Shown piece by piece: positions 455-32,542 of a stretch of DNA of 64,000 nucleotides. The notes beneath the pieces were generated by a model. The model did no database searches. It was not told where the DNA came from and saw only the letters and a list, made by a program, of their open reading frames with translations. The stretch spans positions 13,235 to 77,234 of the forward strand of contig CAVQDL010000016.1 in the NCBI GenBank assembly GCA_963711265.1, written 5' to 3'. The stretch comes from an uncultured delta proteobacterium. Its GTDB lineage: Bacteria > Myxococcota > Myxococcia > Myxococcales > Myxococcaceae. The position numbers and the translations under genes were made by a program. Each line of letters begins with the position of its first letter. The first letter of the stretch is position 1.

Positions 455-526
455 GGGCGGGTAGCTCAGCGGTAGAGCATCGCCCTTACAAGGCGAGGGT
501 CACAGGTTCGACCCCTGTTCCGCCCA
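455..526 (+). tRNA. tRNA-Val (anticodon TAC)
   Basis: Canonical cloverleaf GGGCGGG-TA-GCTCAGCGGTAGAGC-A-TCGCC CTTACAA GGCGA-GGGTC-ACAGG TTCGACC CCTGT-TCCGCCC-A. CCA is not encoded. Confidence 0.9.
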
Positions 527-27244: not shown

Positions 27245-27805
27245 GAACGGTGGATTCCTAGATGCGATTCCTCAGGCGGGCCCCACCCGGCCCGACGCAC
27301 CAGCGCGGAGATTCGCTCTCGGAACGAGCTGTCGTCGTTGCGCAGCTTCCAGGGCTCACTCCCTCGAGACGAGGGCTTCTGTCTCGCCTTCCTTCGCCCA
27401 GGCGTGGAGACAGAAGGTCCCAAGACTCAAATCCTGCCTTGGCGACCCCCTGGGAATCCCACCGCCCGAACGTGTAGTTGTACGACGCACTTCGTTGTGC
27501 GGTGGAGCCGTCCGGGTGCGGTTTTGCGGAGAGCGGAGGACACGAACCTCAGCCCCGGTCTTGGGGCCGCACCGTGTAGCAAACGGGCCGCCAGGCCTCC
27601 TGGCGTTCACTCTCCAGTAGCGGAAGGCGGAGGTCTTGAACCCCAGTCACTTGCGCGACCGCATCCGTTTCGAGCGGAGCCCAGACGCATGTCCAGTTCA
27701 CCTTCCAGTTTCGTCACATACTTGGGCCCGACGACGCCTGGGCCCGTCCACCCCGTTGCGAGGGGCCGTCCAGGACGCACGCCTGGAGGGCCCCTCGCCC
27801 GCCTG

Positions 27806-28348
27806 TTAATCTTCCAGTTCGGTGTTCCAGTACGCCACCGACTGGAGCCACTGCTTCCACGGCTCGGGCATTCCCTTCCGCCACGTGAAGGTGAGGCGCA
27901 CGACGTCCGGAAGCGACTTCGGCTTGGCCGGCGCCTGGACCAGCTTCATCCCGGACTGGCCGGGCGTGCGTCCCCCCTTTCGCTGGTTGCAGGGCGTGCA
28001 CGACACCACGACGTTGTCCCAGGCGGTGTGGCCACCCTGCGCCTTGGGCACGACGTGGTCATAGGTGAAGTCGTGGCGGGGGACGGACCTCGAGCAGTAC
28101 TGGCACTTGCCCTTGTCGCGCGTGTAGACGTTCTCCCGGTTGAACTTGATGCCCGTCCGCTTTCCCCGGATGGCCCGGAGGAACCGAATGACCGCGGGCA
28201 CCCGGAACTCGAGCGTCACGCTCCGCACCGTCTTGTCCTGGTACTCCTCCACCACTTCCACCTTTCCCTCCCACAGCAGCGTGATGGCCCGCTGCCAAGT
28301 CACGCGAGCAACGGGGAGGTACCTGATGTCCAGCACGAGTGTTTCCAT
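27806..28348 (-). CDS. HNH endonuclease (McrA-like)
   Basis: CQYCSRSVPRHDFTYDHVVPKAQGGHTAWDNVVVSCTPCNQRKGG is the HNH CxxC...H...N...CxxC core. Confidence 0.85.
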   Translation of the reverse strand: METLVLDIRYLPVARVTWQRAITLLWEGKVEVVEEYQDKTVRSVTLEFRVPAVIRFLRAIRGKRTGIKFNRENVYTRDKGKCQYCSRSVPRHDFTYDHVVPKAQGGHTAWDNVVVSCTPCNQRKGGRTPGQSGMKLVQAPAKPKSLPDVVRLTFTWRKGMPEPWKQWLQSVAYWNTELED

Positions 28349-28387
28349 CGCTCGCTCCTTTCCGCGGCCGGCGGCCGCCGTTCAAAG

Positions 28388-28476
28388 TGGTACCCCGAGG
28401 GAGAGTCGAACTCCCATGCCCGTTGGAAGGGGCGCCAGGGTCTGAGCCTGGTGTGTCTGCGTTTCACCATCGGGGC
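28388..28476 (-). tRNA. tRNA-Leu (CAG), type II, CCA encoded
   Basis: The reverse complement is GCCCCGA-TG-GTGAAACGCAGACAC-ACCAGG CTCAGAC CCTGG-long variable arm-GGGAG TTCGACT CTCCC-TCGGGGT-ACCA. Confidence 0.8.
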
Positions 28477-28483
28477 GTTTGTG

Positions 28484-28556
28484 TACCGGACCAGGGAATC
28501 AAACCCTGCGCAGCCTCCATGTGAGGGAGGCATCACCTTCAGGTGGACTGTCCGGC
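28484..28556 (-). tRNA. tRNA-Val (CAC)-like with an aberrant D-arm
   Basis: The acceptor is GCCGGAC/GTCCGGT. The anticodon arm is CCTCC CTCACAT GGAGG and the T-arm is CAGGG TTTGATT CCCTG. The D region (TCCACCTGAAGGTGAT) folds only with a 4-nt loop. Confidence 0.55.
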
Positions 28557-28559
28557 ATG

Positions 28560-28630
28560 TCGTGACGGCAGGAGTCGAACCTGCGCTGGCGGCTTATGAG
28601 ACCGCTGCCTTTCCACTTGGCGACGTCACG
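28560..28630 (-). tRNA. tRNA-Met (CAT) (or a lysidine-modified Ile2 tRNA; the two cannot be told apart here)
   Basis: CGTGACG-TC-GCC AAGTGGAAA GGC-A-GCGGT CTCATAA GCCGC-CAGC-GCAGG TTCGACT CCTGC-CGTCACG-A. Confidence 0.7.
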
Positions 28631-28635
28631 AGGAG

Positions 28636-28707
28636 TGCCCCAGCAGGGATTCGAACCCTGACCTTTCGTTTAGAAGACGATGGACCTTCCAGTTAATCGA
28701 CCGGGGC
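28636..28707 (-). tRNA. tRNA-Arg (TCT)
   Basis: GCCCCGG-TC-GATT AACTGGAA GGTC-C-ATCGT CTTCTAA ACGAA-AGGT-CAGGG TTCGAAT CCCTG-CTGGGGC-A. Confidence 0.7.
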
Positions 28708-28709
28708 AG

Positions 28710-28778
28710 TACCCCCAGAGCGAATCGAACGCTCTCACCACGGTTCGTAACCGCGGGGCCGGGTCCATCGGTGGGGGC
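28710..28778 (-). tRNA. tRNA-Arg (ACG), shortened D-arm (69 nt)
   Basis: The acceptor is GCCCCCA/TGGGGGT. The anticodon arm is CGCGG TTACGAA CCGTG and the T-arm is GAGCG TTCGATT CGCTC. The D region is only 16 nt. Confidence 0.6.
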
Positions 28779-28785
28779 AAACAGT

Positions 28786-28855
28786 TACCCCGTGACCGAG
28801 TTGAACGGTCTCGCTCGCCTTCGGACGGCGGGGTCCAGAATCCGCTGGACGGGGC
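28786..28855 (-). tRNA. tRNA-Arg (CCG), D-stem shifted toward the acceptor (70 nt)
   Basis: The acceptor is GCCCCGT/ACGGGGT. The anticodon arm is CGCC GTCCGAA GGCG and the T-arm is GACCG TTCAACT CGGTC. Confidence 0.6.
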
Positions 28856-28873
28856 GCGACATGGGAACAGCAA

Positions 28874-28943
28874 TGGACCGTCCAGGGATTGAACCTGGCG
28901 AGCTCGGTGTGCAAAGCCAAGCGGCACTCCAGTGACACGGCCC
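28874..28943 (-). tRNA. tRNA-Ala (TGC) carrying G3:U70, truncated D-arm
   Basis: The acceptor GGGCCGT/ACGGTCC gives a G3-U70 pair. The anticodon loop TTTGCAC is identical to the E. coli tRNA-Ala(UGC) loop. The T-arm is CCAGG TTCAATC CCTGG. The D-loop is about 2-4 nt. Confidence 0.55.
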
Positions 28944-28961
28944 GTCCTTTACAACCACGTA

Positions 28962-29034
28962 TGCCGCCCGCTGGAATCGAACCAGCGTCTCCCGGGCTTC
29001 AACCGGGCGCCTTGACCACGTCGGCCAGAGCGGC
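28962..29034 (-). tRNA. tRNA-Phe (GAA)
   Basis: GCCGCTC-TG-GCC GACGTGGTCAAG GC-CCCGG TTGAAGC CCGGG-AGAC-GCTGG TTCGATT CCAGC-GGGCGGC-A. Confidence 0.75.
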
Positions 29035-29042
29035 ATTTGTAG

Positions 29043-29114
29043 CGCCTCGTACGGGAGTCGAACCCGTCTCACCCAGTAGACAGCCGGGGACCTTCACCAG
29101 AGGGACAACGAGGC
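29043..29114 (-). tRNA. tRNA-Asp (GTC)-like, with U37 and a weak D-stem
   Basis: The acceptor GCCTCGT/ACGAGGC is a perfect pair. The anticodon arm is CCCGG CTGTCTA CTGGG, the T-arm is ACGGG TTCGACT CCCGT and the discriminator is G. Confidence 0.6.
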
Positions 29115-29119
29115 ATCAG

Positions 29120-29202
29120 GGCGACTGGCGAGAGTCGAACTCGCTCGAGGCCTTCGCCTCGCGGGGCCACAACCCGCTGGTCCACCGTTGACCGTCGGCC
29201 GC
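29120..29202 (-). tRNA. tRNA-His (GTG)-like with G-1/C73 but an unexpected long variable arm (83 nt)
   Basis: GCGGCCG-AC-GGTC AACGGTG GACC-A-GCGGG TTGTGGC CCCGC-GAGGCGAAGGCCTC-GA-GCGAG TTCGACT CTCGC-CAGTCGC-C. An encoded G precedes position 1. Confidence 0.5.
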
Positions 29203-29208
29203 CGTACA

Positions 29209-29279
29209 TAGGGACGGTTGGAGTCGAACCAACGTCTTGCGCTTATCAAGCGCACGCTCTGCCATTGAGCGACGTCCCC
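29209..29279 (-). tRNA. tRNA-Ile (GAT)
   Basis: Fully canonical: GGGGACG-TC-GCTC AATGGCA GAGC-G-TGCGC TTGATAA GCGCA-AGAC-GTTGG TTCGACT CCAAC-CGTCCCT-A. Confidence 0.85.
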
Positions 29280-29371
29280 ACAAAGTGCGACTGCAAGCAG
29301 AAGCCCGTTGGGTCAGCTCGCCCGTTTTCCGTCTGGGCGGGACCATGCGGCCGAGACCCTGCTTCACAAGA

Positions 29372-29444
29372 AGGCGCCGGGGGGAGTTGAACCCACCGTT
29401 CCCGGGTTGAGAACCCGGTGGCCTGCCCGTTGGCCGACGGCGCC
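29372..29444 (-). tRNA. tRNA-Glu (CTC)
   Basis: GGCGCCG-TC-GGCC AACGGGCA GGCC-A-CCGGG TTCTCAA CCCGG-GAACG-GTGGG TTCAACT CCCCC-CGGCGCC-T. Confidence 0.65.
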
Positions 29445-29505
29445 GTGACCCTCTGCTGTTGGGCAGCCGACGCCTGCCCTTCTCCTCATGGTGCGCGCCC
29501 TGGAA

Positions 29506-29578
29506 CTGACCGGGCAGGACTCGAACCTGCGCAGACGCGGGTTAACGGCCCGCCGCTCTTCCGCTGAGCTACCGGTCA
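29506..29578 (-). tRNA. tRNA-Asn (GTT) with U1:A72, G73 and an unusual C33
   Basis: TGACCGG-TA-GCTC AGCGGAA GAGC-G-GCGGG CCGTTAA CCCGC-...-GCAGG TTCGAGT CCTGC-CCGGTCA-G. The T-loop TTCGAGT and U1-A72/G73 match Asn identity. Confidence 0.7.
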
Positions 29579-29592
29579 AGGTTGCCTCCTTG

Positions 29593-29663
29593 TTCCGGCA
29601 CAGGGATTCGAACCCCGATGGGCCGCTTCAAAGACGGCCGTCCTGCCGTTAGGCGATGCCGGA
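29593..29663 (-). tRNA. tRNA-Gln (TTG) with U1:A72
   Basis: The acceptor is TCCGGCA/TGCCGGA. The D-arm is 3 bp (CCT AACGGC AGG), the anticodon arm is GCCGT CTTTGAA GCGGC and the T-arm is CGGGG TTCGAAT CCCTG. Confidence 0.65.
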
Positions 29664-29668
29664 GTGAG

Positions 29669-29740
29669 CTGGGGCGGAAGGAGTCGAACCCTCATTCCTG
29701 GGTTCAGAGCCCAGTGGCCTGCCAGTTGGCCGACGCCCCA
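29669..29740 (-). tRNA. tRNA-Gln (CTG) with U1:A72, G73
   Basis: TGGGGCG-TC-GGCC AACTGGCA GGCC-A-CTGGG CTCTGAA CCCAG-GAAT-GAGGG TTCGACT CCTTC-CGCCCCA-G. Confidence 0.8.
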
Positions 29741-29744
29741 CTGA

Positions 29745-29816
29745 AGCGGGAGGAGGGGGTCGAACCCTCATCGTCGGTTTGGAAGACCGATGCTCTAGCC
29801 GTTGAGCTACGCCCGC
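29745..29816 (-). tRNA. tRNA-Gly (TCC) with U73
   Basis: GCGGGCG-TA-GCTC AACGGCTA GAGC-A-TCGGT CTTCCAA ACCGA-CGAT-GAGGG TTCGACC CCCTC-CTCCCGC-T. There is one C:U mismatch in the acceptor stem. Confidence 0.75.
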
Positions 29817-29820
29817 AGAA

Positions 29821-29906
29821 TGGATGGGGTGAGGATTGAACTCACCAGTGTCCCGGAGGACGCCGCGGTTACGGCACGGTGGACCACCCTTGGTCACATC
29901 CCATCC
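29821..29906 (-). tRNA. tRNA-Tyr (GTA), type II with a long variable arm, C33
   Basis: The acceptor GGATGGG/CCCATCC is a perfect pair. The anticodon arm is CCGTG CCGTAAC CGCGG, the variable arm is GTCC TCCG GGAC and the T-arm is GTGAG TTCAATC CTCAC. Confidence 0.7.
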
Positions 29907-29910
29907 AAAG

Positions 29911-29981
29911 TGGGTCCTGAGGGGATCGAACCCTCTCCAGCCGGTTAAGAACCGACAGCTCTACCCTTGAGCTAAAGACCC
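29911..29981 (-). tRNA. tRNA-Lys (CTT)
   Basis: GGGTCTT-TA-GCTC AAGGGTA GAGC-T-GTCGG TTCTTAA CCGGC-TGGA-GAGGG TTCGATC CCCTC-AGGACCC-A. Confidence 0.85.
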
Positions 29982-30071
29982 CAGTTGGGCCGGCCCGTCC
30001 GGCGTTGGACGGACGGGTGGCCCCACTGTCGCTGCTATTCTTGAATTTCAGAGAACGCCAACGGCTGAAAG

Positions 30072-30143
30072 AGCCCCTACAGGGAATCGAACCCTGACCT
30101 TCGGTTTACGAAACCGATGCTCGACCAACCGAGCTCCGGGGGC
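30072..30143 (-). tRNA. tRNA-Thr (CGT)
   Basis: GCCCCCG-GA-GCTC GGTTGGTC GAGC-A-TCGGT TTCGTAA ACCGA-AGGT-CAGGG TTCGATT CCCTG-TAGGGGC-T. Confidence 0.75.
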
Positions 30144-30147
30144 ATGG

Positions 30148-30215
30148 CAGGCCGCGAAGGGATTGAACCTTCCGAAGCAGGTTTTGGAGACCCGCTCGCG
30201 CCCAGCGCGCGGCCT
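30148..30215 (-). tRNA. tRNA-Trp (CCA) with A1:U72, G73 and a compressed D-arm (68 nt)
   Basis: The acceptor AGGCCGC/GCGGCCT is a perfect pair. The anticodon arm CGGGT CTCCAAA ACCTG is nearly identical to the E. coli tRNA-Trp arm. The T-arm is GAAGG TTCAATC CCTTC. Confidence 0.6.
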
Positions 30216-30682
30216 AAAGTGTGCGGGGAGCCCAAATACGAGAGGCCGGGGACCCCTGCTGGGTCACCCGGCCTCGTGAGCGCCAATCCTTCTGTTGGAT
30301 TAGCGATTCACGAAGTCGGGTGCGCCTCGAACGCTTCTGCCCGGATTCTCTTCGGGCAGGGAAACGACTCGGGCGGCAAGGGATGAGGCCCACGCACACG
30401 AGCGGATGGACGCCGGTCGATGGGCGCTGGCCCTCGCGGCGGTCTCTCCTCTTGGTGCTTGAAATCGCGTGGTCATCATCGGCTCGCTCCGACTTCCTTT
30501 TGCTTGAAGCAAGGTATTCCCGTCACCGTGGGCGAGTCAAGCGCGGGCCCTTGGAGCCGCTGAGGCGCATCTTTCGATGGCAAGAAAAGGATTCGCCAGT
30601 CTCGCCGCGCGGACGCTTCTCGGAACGAAACGTTGCTCGCGCCGTGCCCCAAGTCGCGCCGGGCGACGACACCAGGGGCGGT

Positions 30683-30711
30683 TTGACATGTTTCCAAAAG
30701 AGGCTTATGAG
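30683..30711 (+). promoter_or_regulatory. sigma70-like promoter TTGACA-N17-TATGAG
   Basis: A perfect -35 hexamer (30683-30688) and a 4/6 -10 (30706-30711) lie in a gene-free region 200 nt upstream of an intrinsic terminator on the same strand. Confidence 0.3.
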
Positions 30712-30717
30712 CGCGCC

Positions 30718-30926
30718 TTCTTCTTTTCGAGGCCCGTCGTGAAACTCAAGACCAACCGCCAAAGCCCAATAGATTCATTCCTCGCAAGCCATTGCTTGCG
30801 CAGGTCCGGCCTCGGTCTGGGCGTCGTGACCTCACCTCCGGGAGGCAGTCGCTAGGCGTTCACGCCAACGCGCGCCCTTTACCGGAGGCCGGGTTCCCGA
30901 CAAAGGAACCCGGCCTTCTTCTTTTT
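30718..30926 (+). ncRNA. candidate small RNA (about 210 nt) running from the predicted promoter to the intrinsic terminator
   Basis: No credible ORF lies between the promoter (30683-30711) and the terminator hairpin with its U-tract (30887-30926). It sits between the tRNA array and the tRNA-Pro-like remnant. Confidence 0.3.
30887..30926 (+). terminator. rho-independent terminator: GGCCGGGTTCC-cgacaaa-GGAACCCGGCC followed by TTCTTCTTTTT
   Basis: An 11-bp perfect GC-rich stem with a 7-nt loop is followed by a T-rich run. This is very unusual in this GC-rich DNA. Confidence 0.55.
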
Positions 30927-31093
30927 GGCTTTACAAGAATATGGCGGTGCGCCCATGCGGCGTCGCGGGGCCGCCCGGAGAACCTCCGGTCTGGGAGCTT
31001 GGCTCCCTAGAAACTGGATGTCCTCTCCGGGCGTCGCTCGCGCGCGTTCCGCGCCTCGGGCTCCGCTCGGCAATGAGACCGGCCGTGGACGGA

Positions 31094-31164
31094 CTCGACA
31101 AAGCTCTTTGGTAGAGCACTGGACTTGGAATCCAGAGGCGAGGGTTCAAATCCCTTAACTCAGC
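31094..31164 (+). pseudogene. tRNA-Pro (TGG)-like pseudogene: intact D, anticodon and T arms but a non-pairing 5' acceptor strand
   Basis: The D-arm is GCTC TTTGGTA GAGC, the anticodon arm is CTGGA CTTGGAA TCCAG and the T-arm GAGGG TTCAAAT CCCTT has the Pro-type T-loop. The 3' strand AACTCAG-C faces 5' CTCGACA, giving only 3 of 7 pairs. Confidence 0.5.
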
Positions 31165-31459
31165 ACGGGGGTCGCAAGACTCCCGAGGCGCCGGTCGCGA
31201 GCCGGCGCTGCATCTGGCCGGACGGTGACGCCGGCCCGCGACGGGTTTGCCGCTGCCTCCCCATCCCGGAAGACGCTGCCGCAGACGTCTTGCGTCCGAG
31301 TGCCTCCCGGGCCCGCGAAGCAGCCGCCCCGGCGCGCGCCGACAGACCCTGCCGGAGGGGGACAAATGCAGCGGCCCGTGAGGGGCCGGCGCCTCACTTT
31401 TTTTGCCGTACCCAGACTTCACCCGAAGCAAAACAGCAGACGAAAGGAGGAGGTTGACC

Positions 31460-32542
31460 ATGCGAATCGACATTTCCCTGAAGGAGCGCGTCCTCGTCTA
31501 CGTGGACGGCAAGCCGGTGCGCTACCTGAGTCCGGGCCGTCACCGGCTGCGGGTTCCGTTCTGGAGTGAGGCGGAGGTCGAGCGCTTCGACACCGACGCG
31601 CTGGTGGCCGACCTCCGTGCCGAGGCCCTGGCCCAGGTGCCGGCGAGCGACCTTCGCCGGCTGACGCTGGCGCCGGACGAGCGGGCCGTGGTCAGCCGGA
31701 AGGGCCGCCCGGTGAAGTGGCTGCAGAGCGGCGAGCGTCAGGTCTGGACCGTCGACCCGAGCGTGACCGTCGAGGTCATCGACGTCTCCGGGGTGGCCGC
31801 CGAGCCACTGCGCGACGAGGTCAAGGCCCTGGTGCCGGCAACCGACTACGTCGAGGCGACGGCTGCCGAGGGCACCACCGTGGTCCGTTATGTCGACGGC
31901 GCGCTCGACGCCGTCCTCGGCCCGGGCCGTCATGCCGCCTGGACGGTGCGACGCAAGGTCAACCTGGCGGTCATCGACCTGCGGGAGCACCAGCTCGCCG
32001 TCAACGGCCAGGAGGTGATGACCAAGGACCGGGTGTCCCTGCGCCTGAACCTCAGCGCGGCCTGGCGGGTCGCCGACCCGCGTCGGCTGGCGACGGTGGC
32101 GCGCGCGCCGGACGAGGTCCTCTACGTGGCGGTGCAGCTGGCCGCCCGCGAGGCCGTCTCCACGCGCACGCTGGACGAGCTGCTCGCAGCGCGCGAGCAG
32201 CTGGGACTGCACCTGGCGCCCACCGTGGCGCAGCGTGCGGCCACCGTCGGGCTGGAGCTGCTGGACCTCGGCGTGAAGGACCTCGTCCTCCCGGGCGAGA
32301 TGAAGACGCTGCTCAACCGGGTCATCGAGGCACAGAAGGAGGCGGAGGCCAACGTCATCTTCCGGCGGGAGGAGACGGCGGCCACGCGCTCCATGGCGCA
32401 GACGGCCAAGGTCCTGGCCGAGAACCCGCTCGTCGTCCGCCTCAAGGAGCTGGAGGCGTACAAGGAGCTGGCGGCCAAGGTGGGCCAGGTGCACCTCGTC
32501 CTCGGCGAGGGCGCCCTGCCGCAGCTGCAGCTGAAGACGTGA
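31460..32542 (+). CDS. SPFH/band-7 (stomatin/prohibitin-like) domain protein
   Basis: RBS aggagg is 10 nt before ATG 31460. The C-terminal SPFH core is LDLGVKDLVLPGEMKTLLNRVIEAQKEAEANVIFRREETAATRSMAQTAKVLAENPLVVRLKELEAY. Confidence 0.85.
   Translation: MRIDISLKERVLVYVDGKPVRYLSPGRHRLRVPFWSEAEVERFDTDALVADLRAEALAQVPASDLRRLTLAPDERAVVSRKGRPVKWLQSGERQVWTVDPSVTVEVIDVSGVAAEPLRDEVKALVPATDYVEATAAEGTTVVRYVDGALDAVLGPGRHAAWTVRRKVNLAVIDLREHQLAVNGQEVMTKDRVSLRLNLSAAWRVADPRRLATVARAPDEVLYVAVQLAAREAVSTRTLDELLAAREQLGLHLAPTVAQRAATVGLELLDLGVKDLVLPGEMKTLLNRVIEAQKEAEANVIFRREETAATRSMAQTAKVLAENPLVVRLKELEAYKELAAKVGQVHLVLGEGALPQLQLKT

Follow-up and report, generated by a model that had tools for sequence, protein, structure and literature searches.

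A phage-related array of 22 extra tRNA genes with conserved non-canonical structures in a myxobacterial chromosome

A phage-related block comprising 22 additional tRNA genes and a nuclease gene is present in the chromosome of a soil myxobacterium of the Myxococcaceae. In the 64,000-nt stretch of DNA analysed here (the window), the block occupies positions 30215-27527 of the reverse strand, with the 22 tRNA genes and one embedded HNH endonuclease gene all on the same strand within 2.7 kb. About ten of the array tRNAs have an abnormal core or abnormal loops; these odd members are under purifying selection and their non-canonical structures are conserved. Taken as a whole, the locus is a chromosomal L-array copy with an embedded HNH gene, and most likely a functional, supplementary set of tRNAs that originated in large phages.

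Gene content and detection of the array

A sequence-only reading had placed a tRNA array at 28484-30215; the array is indeed there but extends further, since tRNA-Leu(CAG) (28391-28476), the HNH gene (27806-28348) and two non-canonical tRNA-Ser genes (27621-27706 and 27527-27615) also belong to it. The set covers 18 amino acids in a conserved order, resembling phage tRNA islands. The features, in the order of transcription, are as follows (Sec denotes the tRNA-Sec model).

Structured element, 30216..30335 (-): two hairpins, directly upstream of the first tRNA gene
tRNA-Trp(CCA), 30148..30215 (-): 68 nt, non-canonical; found by ARAGORN, 28.6 bits under Sec only; 8-9 linker absent; D arm GCGC-UGG-GCGC (4-bp stem, 3-nt loop); 7-bp anticodon stem; G73; CCA encoded after the gene
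tRNA-Thr(CGT), 30072..30143 (-): Rfam 53.6 bits; near-canonical except for G8 and one acceptor mismatch
Thr-Lys spacer, 29982..30071 (-): AT-richer block, then a strong hairpin
tRNA-Lys(CTT), 29911..29981 (-): canonical; Rfam 60.4 bits
tRNA-Tyr(GTA), 29821..29906 (-): class II, non-canonical; 18.6 bits under Sec, no match by default ARAGORN or the Rfam tRNA model; A8, C33, C38; D arm GACCA-AGGG-UGGUC (5 bp, 4-nt loop; fold and parse)
tRNA-Gly(TCC), 29745..29816 (-): canonical, U73; Rfam 65 bits
tRNA-Gln(CTG), 29669..29740 (-): canonical, U1-A72, G73; Rfam 57.5 bits
tRNA-Gln(TTG), 29593..29663 (-): canonical-like; Rfam 46.9 bits
tRNA-Asn(GTT), 29506..29578 (-): canonical body, C33 (loop CCGUUAA); Rfam 57.4 bits
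tRNA-Glu(CTC), 29372..29444 (-): canonical-like; Rfam 52.6 bits
tRNA-Ile(GAT), 29209..29279 (-): canonical; Rfam 69.2 bits
tRNA-His(GTG), 29120..29203 (-): found by ARAGORN, 29.1 bits under Sec only; encoded G-1 facing C73; A8; class-II-like variable arm GAGGC-GAAG-GCCUC; five-arm cloverleaf as MFE fold
tRNA-Asp(GTC), 29043..29114 (-): found by ARAGORN, 28.5 bits under Sec; weak D stem; U37 A38 (loop CUGUCUA); G73 retained
tRNA-Phe(GAA), 28962..29034 (-): canonical; Rfam 58.6 bits
tRNA-Ala(TGC), 28874..28943 (-): 70 nt, non-canonical; missed by ARAGORN and Infernal, folded by the parser; G8; D arm CAC-UGGA-GUG; lengthened anticodon stem bearing a C-A mismatch; G3:U70 and A73 retained
tRNA-Arg(CCG), 28786..28855 (-): 70 nt, non-canonical; missed by ARAGORN and Infernal; D stem CCAG/CUGG abutting acceptor base 7, D loop CGGAUU; 3-nt linker between D arm and anticodon stem
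tRNA-Arg(ACG), 28710..28778 (-): 69 nt; short-D design CCG-AUGGACC-CGG; missed by ARAGORN and Infernal
tRNA-Arg(TCT), 28636..28707 (-): canonical length, weak D stem; Rfam 51.1 bits
tRNA-Met(CAT), 28560..28630 (-): canonical, C1-G72 paired; Rfam 62.9 bits
tRNA-Val(CAC), 28484..28556 (-): 73 nt, A8; D region AGUCCACCUGAAGGUGAUG, folding as a CACC/GGUG hairpin with a 4-nt loop; missed by ARAGORN and Infernal
tRNA-Leu(CAG), 28391..28476 (-): class II, A73; Rfam 45.9 bits
HNH endonuclease gene, 27806..28348 (-): 180 aa; between the tRNA-Leu and tRNA-Ser genes
tRNA-Ser(CGA), 27621..27706 (-): class II, non-canonical; missed by ARAGORN, 31.8 bits under Sec; 6-bp D hairpin with 4-nt loop (CUGGAC-AUGC-GUCUGG), 4-bp T stem, G73 (fold)
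tRNA-Ser(GCT), 27527..27615 (-): class II, non-canonical; missed by ARAGORN, 33.2 bits under Sec; 7-bp D hairpin with 3-nt loop, T loop UUCGUGU without A58 (fold)

ARAGORN at default settings detected 15 array tRNAs, and 13 of the 22 reached the gathering score of the Rfam tRNA model. With permissive Infernal settings, the genes for Trp, His, Asp and Tyr and both Ser genes gave only sub-threshold matches to the tRNA-Sec model (18.6-33.2 bits), while Ala(TGC), Arg(CCG), Arg(ACG) and Val(CAC) gave no match even at E≤10. Covariance-model scoring thus bears out the non-canonical architecture described by the sequence-only reading: the automated tools did not return standard cloverleaves for the odd members. 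A D-arm-tolerant parser recovered 21 array genes, every one with at least 6 of 7 acceptor pairs, at least 4 of 5 T-stem pairs and at least 4 of 5 anticodon-stem pairs. The two housekeeping tRNAs of the same window (455-526, 70.3 bits; 542-615, 71.5 bits; Rfam) are canonical, with U8, U33 and A37, and are free of the oddities, as had been stated.

Most of the individual structural claims were confirmed. Trp (68 nt), Ala and Arg-CCG (70 nt each) and Arg-ACG (69 nt) have the stated short lengths; between acceptor and anticodon stem these four have 14-17 nt, compared with 18-20 nt in normal members, and the D stem of Trp and of both Arg tRNAs begins directly after acceptor base 7. The 4-nt D loop of Val is a possible fold (CACC-TGAA-GGTG), as is a weak canonical register. 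C33 of Asn was seen in the Infernal alignment itself, that of Tyr was confirmed by homology to related loci L088 and L093, which carry CUGUAAA, and U37 of Asp was placed by the parser; in His, fold and parser agree on G-1 opposite C73 and on a variable arm with a 5-bp stem and a 4-nt loop. U8 is lost in 43% of the window's tRNAs. The motif GTGG.AAG, said to recur across isoacceptors, has a single array occurrence (Met, 28609-28616) and is not enriched in the window (6 matches versus 7.4 expected); array D regions share merely a GG dinucleotide, the equivalent of G18G19.

The second hairpin of the upstream element is a GC-rich stem with UCGUAUUUGGG after it, some 25 nt ahead of tRNA-Trp. The element (MFE -58.3 kcal/mol, z = -4.8) has no Rfam match, and its sequence and hairpins are kept in L007, L008, L088, L092 and L099, with one compensatory pair; from these features we infer a candidate leader/attenuator or small RNA. 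The array showed no sigma-70-like promoter, and it may be mostly silent because a terminator-like hairpin lies just upstream of its first tRNA. The Thr-Lys spacer, which is conserved with its L099 counterpart (z = 10 for the local alignment) and is 96% identical to that of L007, is a possible candidate for an internal promoter or processing signal.

Conservation and covariation in related arrays

The locus belongs to the known L-arrays, or 'tRNA array units', with a conserved HNH gene. The HNH protein (Pfam HNH_5, 1.2e-15; HNH, 2.7e-13) has 1205 homologues and differs from that of L007 by 26 synonymous versus 3 non-synonymous codons; its relatives are encoded at 293 genome loci (essentially all Myxococcota among the 80 listed). 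Related HNH loci range from 0 to 27 detectable tRNAs, and in many of them the array has the same order of isotypes. IMG/VR viral contigs, 100-210 kb long, encode the HNH protein at 59-68% identity and carry syntenic arrays with up to 45 tRNAs, including the mini-D Trp, Asp U37 and Asn C33. Most likely, the array shares ancestry with the tRNA islands of large myxobacterial phages. Genes for tRNA damage or rescue occur in related loci, namely RtcB and PNKP (L004), TROVE/Ro60 (L006 and phage Mx1) and tmRNA (L001-L004). The neighbourhood of the window array consists of ordinary chromosomal genes common to related genomes (SPFH, FAA hydrolase, ECF sigma factor); no phage genes, mobile-element genes or flanking repeats were found near the array.

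Non-canonical tRNAs were conserved to the same degree as canonical ones. Compared with the close relative L007, canonical tRNAs were 98.2% and non-canonical tRNAs 97.5% identical, against 86.6% in the spacers and 94.5% in HNH DNA, and the corresponding values for L097 were 95.7%, 95.6%, 59.4% and 90.8%; the Ala(TGC) and Ser(GCT) genes were 100% and 97% identical to their L007 copies. Across 16 arrays, 97.6% of Trp alignment cells were paired and 16 of 23 pairs showed compensatory changes, the D helix being 100% paired with both sides changed in 3 of its 4 pairs. The 26 aligned short Arg tRNAs, among them the array Arg(CCG) and Arg(ACG), were 97.4% paired (17 of 21 pairs compensatory), with GGA invariant in the D loop. 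Both sides had changed in 5 of the 6 pairs of the Ser(CGA) D hairpin (19 arrays), and pair 7-66 of Ala(TGC) is U-A here versus C-G in L099. The D region of Val(CAC) is near-invariant in 12 arrays despite differing acceptor and anticodon stems.

The anticodon-loop and variable-arm features differ in their spread. C33 of Asn is present in each of the four distinct clade sequences and replaced by U33 in other arrays; C33 of Tyr is confined to the window and L007, whereas L088 and L093 have U33. Asp U37 occurs in 5 of 5 clade sequences and 11 of 15 other chromosomal sequences, and the long variable arm of His in 8 of 8 distinct clade sequences as well as in the phage-like L001 and L087. Family-wide, U33 is absent in 12-15% of tRNAs and position 37 is a pyrimidine in 4-6%. 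Among hundreds of array tRNAs, discriminator bases obey bacterial rules in 15 isotypes (Ala, Asn, Asp, Cys, Gly, His, Ile, Leu, Lys, Met, Phe, Pro, Trp, Tyr and Val), and of the synthetase identity elements, Ala keeps G3:U70 and His keeps G-1:C73. The abnormal shapes are actively preserved by evolution, and the odd tRNAs are therefore probably working molecules rather than decaying junk. Conservation, compensation, identity elements and recurrence together uphold the earlier view of a divergent set that is not decaying, but not its argument for co-evolution from a shared D-loop motif.

The array reads 62% of codons, preferring G-ending codons, or C/U-ending codons in two-codon boxes. It is unlikely to be a self-sufficient 'alternative set', because tRNAs for Pro and Cys are missing and the commonest codons of Ala, Gly, Leu, Thr and Val have no reader in it. 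Genes for Cys, Pro, Ala-CGC and Val-GAC are present in sister arrays and missing here; the sister arrays have lost different genes, and erosion by gene loss is therefore ongoing.

Proposed role and alternative explanations

We propose that the 22 genes would yield real tRNAs, whose acceptor, anticodon and T arms are intact and whose D loop keeps the GG needed for the elbow contact. Transcription would probably give one or two long precursors, followed by excision and CCA addition. Host enzymes would charge them and the ribosome would use them as a supplementary pool; we favour their expression, charging and use in translation. The rebuilt cores (D stem abutting the acceptor, D loop of 3-6 nt and longer anticodon stem in Trp, Arg and Ala) and the other rebuilt forms (long D hairpins in Tyr and Ser, an extra arm in His, C33 and U37 in the anticodon loop) are maintained by selection through compensatory changes. 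The likeliest reason for the odd shapes, put forward only tentatively, is that they may let the tRNAs escape recognition by the tRNA-cutting nucleases of defence or toxin systems. Nuclease resistance has been hypothesised in the literature for tRNAs of phages and for tRNA arrays (PMC10264068, PMC12803027). No nuclease that targets tRNAs turned up in the window or in linkage with the array. If nuclease evasion is correct, the array would be a damage-resistant tRNA reserve that served the phage originally and may now serve the host. According to established tRNA biochemistry, C33 and U37 are expected to weaken decoding. Conservation could also reflect a non-translational role.

A functional supplementary set could also carry its oddities as tolerated variants, fixed in phage ancestors under relaxed constraint and without adaptive value, the odd forms persisting only since further change would break a working molecule. 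Purifying selection and compensation are expected of any functional RNA and do not prove an advantage of the odd form; some oddities are recent and lineage-specific, such as Tyr C33; the nuclease partner was not found; and phage-like arrays with mostly canonical versions exist (Arg and Ala in L001 and L087, Trp and Tyr in L087). However, independent isoacceptors and lineages show repeated deviations at the same positions: C33 appears in Asp, Ile, His, Gly, Leu, Val and Asn, position 37 of Asp is U, G or C, and the mini-D design is found repeatedly, in Trp, in three Arg isoacceptors and in Ala and Cys, so that directional pressure looks likelier than drift and non-adaptive fixation appears rather unlikely. 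Roles outside translation, as toxin decoys, Ro60/Rsr-type ligands or aminoacyl donors for non-ribosomal reactions, would fit the features that are weak for decoding (C33, U37, the frequent loss of U8 and the Ser(GCT) T loop without A58) and the TROVE/Ro60 genes adjoining related arrays, and the Anabaena study explicitly allows non-canonical roles (PMC8421152). A pure decoy, however, needs none of the anticodons, discriminators and other identity elements that are conserved per isoacceptor, the coverage of 18 amino acids in conserved order is that of phage tRNA islands, and the Anabaena homologues are reported to be charged in vivo when induced and may participate in translation (PMC8421152); we consider such roles improbable.

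A decaying remnant of a prophage tRNA island, its odd genes being pseudogenes that gain deletions and point mutations, is very improbable. Nine of the 22 genes fall below the Rfam tRNA threshold, four genes are missing relative to sister arrays, no mobile-element genes or flanking repeats are left, and the number of detectable tRNAs varies widely among related HNH loci. Against this, the odd genes match the canonical ones in conservation, far above the spacers, the unusual helices of Trp, short Arg and Ser covary, acceptor, anticodon and T arms stay paired with identity elements kept in all, distant arrays and viral contigs contain the same odd forms, and whole genes have been lost while retained genes are not gradually eroding. 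Pseudogene decay is thus largely refuted by the Trp and Arg covariation and by the conservation of odd genes relative to spacers.

Comparison with known tRNA arrays

The trn operon on plasmid delta of Anabaena (Nostoc) PCC 7120 is likewise a long, non-periodic, same-strand array of more than 20 tRNAs with short spacers, supernumerary to the housekeeping tRNAs and horizontally spread, and it is adjoined by a homologous HNH gene (38% identity to the window HNH, E 1e-28). It also contains tRNA-Leu genes of class-I length, as do most myxobacterial relatives. Here the HNH gene is embedded in the array, with Leu and Ser on either side, but in Anabaena it is upstream of the array; the gene order differs, and the window array is chromosomal with a conserved neighbourhood whereas the Anabaena array is on a plasmid. 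The same scanner found no mini-D-arm tRNAs (0 of 19 with a short D region) in one Nostoc plasmid array, L095, the PCC 7120 array (L177) being outside this count. In Anabaena, 23 of 26 array tRNAs were reported to be charged in vivo, with induction by translational stress (PMC8421152); expression and charging are shown for that array only.

Mycobacterium tRNA array units (PMC5966550, PMC12803027) also combine 20 or more tRNAs at high density with a single embedded conserved HNH gene, fall into groups defined by isotype order that are common to chromosomes, plasmids and phages, and sometimes adjoin tmRNA and translation-rescue genes, as do myxobacterial relatives. They differ in phylum and in isotype order, and these two papers contain no report of conserved, covarying truncated D arms, C33/Y37 frequencies or class-swapped Leu/His tRNAs. 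They include arrays on giant linear plasmids of M. avium (PMC12803027), and an anti-defence role has likewise been proposed for them.

Large-phage tRNA clusters (the T4 SegB region, T5, cluster C and M mycobacteriophages) are dense islands with homing-type endonuclease genes, and in Myxococcus phage Mx1 the HNH homologue (46% identity) has a tRNA-Leu gene on each side and a TROVE protein nearby; the window copy, in contrast, lies in a bacterial chromosome amid ordinary genes. Phage tRNAs for which evasion of anticodon nucleases by altered anticodon loops has been proposed (PMC10264068, PMC11555353) are similarly extras of phage ancestry with anticodon loops unlike those of the host, as illustrated by array Asp (CUGUCUA) versus housekeeping Asp 542-615 (CUGUCAC) in the same window. 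Here, however, it is the D arm and core that deviate most, and not the anticodon loop alone, the genes are host-resident and no cognate nuclease is known.

Those mitochondrial tRNAs of animals that have reduced D arms, such as mammalian mt-tRNA-Ser(UCN), show a short acceptor-D connector, a small D loop and an extended anticodon stem. Array Trp, with its 0-nt connector, 3-nt loop and 7-bp anticodon stem, resembles them in design but not by homology. In the array tRNAs, by contrast, the T arm is fully canonical and the D-loop GG is retained, and they are encoded by bacterial or phage genes.

Gene content of the array and recovery of its tRNA genes

The array comprises 22 tRNA genes running in a single direction on the minus strand over 2.69 kb (30215-27527), 20 of which lie within the 1.83 kb upstream of an HNH endonuclease gene, with spacers of 1-92 nt. 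It outruns the interval 28484-30215 to which the sequence-only reading had referred, as tRNA-Leu(CAG), the HNH gene and two tRNA-Ser genes are also members.

Members of the array outside 28484-30215
28391-28476, minus strand: tRNA-Leu(CAG), a normal class-II tRNA
27806-28348, minus strand: HNH endonuclease gene, 180 aa (Pfam HNH_5, 1.2e-15; also HNH)
Beyond the HNH gene: two class-II tRNA-Ser genes, with D hairpins of 6 and 7 bp and loops of 3-4 nt

The genes represent 18 amino acids with 22 different anticodons, Pro and Cys being absent, and the Asp(GTC) gene duplicates a canonical Asp gene at 542-615 of the same window. A repeat search returned only T-arm and anticodon-arm similarity (60-82%) and no tandem unit within the array, which is thus non-periodic. 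Relative to fuller arrays, whole genes are missing (Cys, Pro, Ala-CGC/GGC, Val-GAC, Thr-GGT and further Leu, Ser and Met genes), and the spacers from which they were lost are no longer recognisable as tRNA; the spacers 29445-29505 and 29280-29371, whose positions are occupied by Cys and Pro in the related loci L008/L099, showed no significant similarity to those genes (z = 0.9 and 0.1) and were rejected as their decayed copies. Separately, a tRNA-Pro(TGG)-like fragment lies at 31102-31156 on the plus strand, approximately 0.9 kb upstream of the array and on the opposite strand to it; it matches the Rfam tRNA model at 47.7 bits over model positions 9-63 only, has a degenerate acceptor stem and approximately 50% G+C in a window of approximately 66% G+C, and may have been left behind by integration or recombination.

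ARAGORN called 15 minus-strand tRNAs at 28388-30215, in addition to two canonical housekeeping tRNAs near the window start (Val, 455-526; Asp, 542-616). With the Rfam tRNA model (RF00005) at its curated threshold of 29 bits, 13 array genes passed (45.9-69.2 bits), and Trp, Tyr, His, Asp, Ala, Arg-CCG, Arg-ACG, Val, Ser-CGA and Ser-GCT fell below it. A permissive Infernal search of 27500-32000 retrieved Trp, His, Asp, Tyr and two genes at 27528-27707 as sub-threshold selenocysteine-tRNA matches (18.6-33.2 bits) and gave no match at E<=10 for Ala(TGC), Arg(CCG), Arg(ACG) and Val(CAC), which were assigned by eye. Lowering the ARAGORN threshold recovered Tyr together with many overlapping false calls on both strands; we therefore wrote a parser tolerant of D-arm variation, anchored on the T arm and acceptor and leaving the D region free. 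This recovered 21 genes, each with at least 6/7 acceptor pairs, at least 4/5 pairs in the anticodon stem and at least 4/5 in the T stem; the 22nd, Ser(GCT), with the T loop UUCGUGU, was defined by folding. Among the 21 parsed tRNAs nine lack U8, two lack U33 (Asn, Tyr), one carries U37 (Asp) and three have D regions of 16 nt or less, the D-region and position-8 assignments depending on the anticodon-stem register chosen. In practical terms, standard finders miss from one third (ARAGORN, 7/22) to two fifths (Rfam tRNA threshold, 9/22) of the genes of such arrays.

The sequence-only reading had described repeated departures from the cloverleaf, and these survive automated refolding, which does not bring back standard cloverleaves. 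The short lengths hold (Trp 68 nt, Ala 70, Arg-CCG 70, Arg-ACG 69), with D regions of 14-17 nt versus 18-20; the D stem is shifted toward the acceptor, following base 7 directly in Trp and both Arg, while the 3-bp stem of Ala begins two bases after acceptor base 7, and the 4-nt D loop of Val folds as CACC-UGAA-GGUG. C33 in Asn is seen in the Infernal alignment itself, C33 in Tyr and U37 in Asp are both present, and tRNA-His combines G-1/C73 with a variable arm of a 5-bp stem and 4-nt loop. One claim fell away: the D-loop motif GTGG.AAG, said to recur among unrelated isoacceptors, has a single occurrence in the array and shows no enrichment.

Conservation and covariation of the non-canonical tRNAs

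To compare constraint among segment classes, the window array was aligned to relatives and identity was scored for each class.

Nucleotide identity of the window array to two related arrays
L007: canonical tRNAs 98.2%, non-canonical tRNAs 97.5%, spacers 86.6%, HNH DNA 94.5%
L097: canonical tRNAs 95.7%, non-canonical tRNAs 95.6%, spacers 59.4%, HNH DNA 90.8%

The HNH gene, which differs from that of L007 by 26 synonymous and 3 non-synonymous codon changes, is under purifying selection, and the constraint on the odd tRNA genes equals that on the canonical tRNAs and exceeds that on this protein gene. Compensatory change was followed in MAFFT alignments, in which a few rows are shifted (L057 in alignment A2; L014, L016, L024 and L038 in A5), with the effect of lowering, not raising, the paired fractions. 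Among 16 distinct short tRNA-Trp sequences from different arrays, 97.6% of cells are paired and both partners have changed in 16 of 23 pairs; the 4-bp D helix, read as GC/GC, CU/AG, AUGC/GCAU or CGUC/GACG, is 100% paired, and neither any shuffle nor any slid register approaches the observed pairing. The 26 short tRNA-Arg sequences behave similarly (97.4% of cells paired, 17 of 21 pairs compensatory) and share an invariant D-loop GGA, which we take to be G18, G19 and A20 (ArgRS identity base in E. coli). In the long D hairpin of Ser, five of six pairs have changed on both sides (19 arrays), and the odd D region of Val is nearly invariant in 12 arrays with completely changed other stems. Shuffle controls overstate significance because related sequences have common ancestry; against the fairer control of slid registers (31-60% paired) the true registers reach 88-98%, and the covariation of the odd tRNAs is as clear as that of textbook tRNAs.

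Features read by synthetases are likewise kept. Ala retains G3:U70 and His G-1:C73, discriminator bases match bacterial rules for at least 15 amino acids across several hundred distinct array tRNAs, and GG in the D region is found in 21/21 window tRNAs, in 127/127 of the window's clade and in all but 3/475 and 4/173 of the other two groups. The array tRNAs, odd ones included, are therefore under purifying selection for a folded, synthetase-recognisable structure. That the array might consist of tRNA pseudogenes ranks low among the explanations considered: all 21 parsed genes keep well-paired acceptor, anticodon and T stems, the odd genes far exceed the spacers in identity to both L007 and L097, the Trp, Arg and Ser helices carry compensatory changes, and the losses in the window are of whole genes. 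The view of the sequence-only reading that the odd set does not reflect random decay thus stands.

Many of the oddities extend across the family. In chromosomal arrays tRNA-Trp is regularly of the mini-D type (15/15 sequences have a D region no longer than 16 nt), and this form also occurs in the viral contigs L188 and L193; the phage-like L087 has a canonical Trp. Short-D Arg is present in many arrays and canonical-length Arg in others. U37 in Asp was found in 5/5 sequences of the window's clade and 11/15 other chromosomal ones, the remainder having G or C at this position, and the phage-like full arrays have mostly A37. Throughout the window's clade Asn has C33, a base that is also frequent in the Asp, Ile, His, Gly-GCC, Leu-GAG and Val tRNAs of other arrays. 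Taking all array tRNAs together, U33 is missing from 12-15%, a pyrimidine occupies position 37 in 4-6%, and U8 is missing from 21-43%. The long-arm tRNA-His was seen in the window's clade as well as in L001/L087. Tyr C33, confined to the window and L007, is among the oddities of recent origin. A tRNA-Leu of class-I length (74-78 nt, without the long variable arm) is the norm in most chromosomal arrays, in Myxococcus phage Mx1 and in the Anabaena array.

Class-I-length tRNA-Leu genes in related arrays
L099, 3184-3259
L006, 9372-9945
L094 (phage Mx1), 5908-5981 and 6809-6883
L177 (Anabaena PCC 7120 array), 1054-1590

Related arrays, their spread and signals around the array

The HNH protein has more than 1200 homologues, and a scan of one genome per species yielded 293 loci with HNH relatives. 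The best 80 of these 293 are essentially all from Myxococcota (Archangium, Cystobacter, Hyalangium, Vitiosangium, Myxococcus eversor and many MAGs), the closest HNH among them being that of a Myxococcaceae MAG (L007, 98% identity). In many of the loci the isotype order matches that of the window: Trp-Thr-(Gly)-Tyr-Lys-Gly-Gln-Gln-Asn-(Cys)-Glu-(Pro)-Ile-His-Asp-Phe-(Val/Ala)-Arg-Arg-Arg-Met-Val-Leu-HNH-Ser. The phage-like L001 and L087, in which small genes are numerous and tmRNA and phage-family nucleases occur, carry 28-37 tRNAs in fuller arrays, with HNH proteins 82-83% identical to that of the window. Syntenic arrays with HNH identities of 59-68% were found in IMG/VR viral contigs of 100-210 kb; three of these (L188, L189, L193; 147-210 kb) hold as many as 45 tRNA genes in the 12.5 kb surrounding HNH, including mini-D tRNA-Trp with new covarying stems (GAUC/GAUC, GAGC/GCUC), and L188 additionally carries Asp U37, Asn C33 and a short Leu(CAG). 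In phage Mx1 the HNH gene (46% identity) lies between two tRNA-Leu genes and adjoins genes for a TROVE protein and peptidyl-tRNA hydrolase. The informative viral scan was that based on HNH; an exact-pattern scan with the 5' half of the short Trp was non-specific because the pattern is GC-rich, and only 1 of 80 loci contained a short Trp.

These viral and phage-like contigs, together with flanking genes in L089 and L092 that differ from those of the window, indicate that related arrays have spread by horizontal transfer. The upstream neighbourhood is common to the window and L007, and more weakly to L099, L100 and L102, so that recent inheritance within this closest clade has been vertical. No flanking direct repeats or att sites were found around the array, and the genes flanking it in the window are ordinary chromosomal ones, among which there is neither an integrase nor a phage gene. 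For the HNH gene, the simplest reading, also proposed in the literature, is a putative homing-type endonuclease by which the array would be spread or retained. Downstream of the two tRNA-Ser genes, L007 (7068-8704), L096 and L145 have approximately 1.6 kb of extra DNA absent from the window (about 27283), containing a long ORF without a Pfam match. RNA-repair and translation-rescue genes also adjoin related arrays; no RtcB, PNKP, TROVE/Ro60, peptidyl-tRNA hydrolase or tmRNA gene was found near the window's array.

RNA-repair and translation-rescue genes adjoining related arrays
L004, 1-288 and 15553-16053: RtcB and PNKP-type phosphatase with vault-like protein
L006, 11141-12667: TROVE/Ro60
L094 (phage Mx1), 1-1522: TROVE/Ro60, peptidyl-tRNA hydrolase
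L001-L004 (L001, 5365-5744): tmRNA

Immediately upstream of tRNA-Trp, a minus-strand element of ~105-120 nt (30216-30335) is predicted to form two hairpins (MFE -58.3 kcal/mol, z = -4.8) and is conserved in six related arrays. The first hairpin has one compensatory pair; the second is GC-rich and is followed by a U-tract, UCGUAUUUGGG, ~25 nt before tRNA-Trp. The element, without an Rfam match, may act as an attenuating leader or represent a small RNA; in L006 and L057, too, terminator-like hairpins lie ahead of Trp. As a lead, this suggests that expression of the array may be gated. No sigma-70-like promoter match was found for the array. The Thr-Lys spacer (29982-30071, minus strand), the sole spacer conserved with the distant sister array L099 (z = 10), contains an AT-richer block, GTTCTCTGAAATTCAAGAATAGCAGCGACA, followed by a strong hairpin, and may be an internal promoter or processing signal. 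A further terminator-like hairpin (30884-30927, plus strand) of 14 pairs followed by TTCTTTTTGG lies in the 1.2-kb intergenic region between the array and an SPFH gene; no confident plus-strand gene ends there. The Anabaena array is nearly silent and is induced by translational stress, with 23 of its 26 tRNAs reported to be charged (PMC8421152).

Possible roles and comparison with known tRNA arrays

We infer that the array tRNAs would be expressed, processed and charged, supplementing translation. The anticodon set is biased toward codons ending in G (C34 in Thr, Lys, Gln, Glu, Arg, Val, Leu and Ser) and, through G34, toward two-codon boxes ending in C/U, and it would read 62% of the codons in 21 window genes. 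The commonest Ala, Gly, Leu, Thr and Val codons and all Pro and Cys codons are unread; therefore, the array is no stand-alone decoding set. The suggestion of the sequence-only reading that the RNAs might serve as decoys ranks low if decoys are meant to be their only role.

Escape from tRNA-targeting nucleases, a published hypothesis for phage tRNAs and arrays (PMC10264068, PMC12803027), is a possible reason for the odd shapes, which we put forward tentatively. It fits because the changes recur at positions 8, 33 and 37/38 and in the D arm (Asp has U37/A38 in the array versus A37/C38 in the host, and Asn and Tyr have C33), and because of the phage ancestry and the RtcB, PNKP, Ro60 and tmRNA genes near relatives; no tRNA-targeting nuclease was identified in the window or linked to the array. 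The chief competing explanation takes the shapes to be tolerated variants that became fixed historically. Carried further, nuclease escape leads to a model that we consider rather unlikely, in which the arrays of Myxococcota and large phages would form a "hardened" tRNA set, marked by mini D-arms lacking the U8 connector, long D hairpins, anticodon loops with C33 or pyrimidine 37, and tRNA-Leu without and tRNA-His with a long arm, and selected so that normal synthetases still charge it while tRNA-cutting defence nucleases or interbacterial toxins fail to act on it; the chromosomal copies would then be an inducible, toxin-proof host reserve gated by the terminator-containing leader. The array tRNAs allow a direct test of resistance to tRNA-targeting nucleases, and the 68-nt tRNA-Trp and 69-70-nt tRNA-Arg are test molecules for how far the bacterial tRNA core can be reduced while still supporting charging and decoding.

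Long tRNA arrays are known, and the tRNAs in them tend to be regarded as ordinary or in part pseudogenised. The short Trp resembles, by analogy only, the design of mitochondrial tRNAs in which the connector is reduced, the D loop small and the anticodon stem extended. The HNH gene adjoining the trn array (24-26 genes) of Anabaena PCC 7120 plasmid delta is 38% identical to that of the window (E = 1e-28), and that upstream of a Nostoc plasmid array of 21 tRNAs is 39% identical; this homology places the locus in the family of L-arrays (PMC8421152) or tRNA array units, the latter described in mycobacteria with an embedded HNH gene (PMC5966550, PMC12803027). The type of system, its HNH linkage and its horizontal spread are already known, as is the idea that array tRNAs are structurally different and may counter defences. 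Literature searches returned nothing specific on tRNA arrays in myxobacteria, and full-text searches found no description of the myxobacterial/myxophage branch, of conserved, covarying mini-D-arm tRNAs without the 8-9 connector, of the high incidence of C33 and pyrimidine 37, or of class-swapped Leu and His tRNAs. To the known family, our analysis adds a large myxobacterial and phage branch in which strongly non-canonical tRNA architectures, with an absent 8-9 connector, D loops of 3-6 nt and frequent C33, are preserved by selection.
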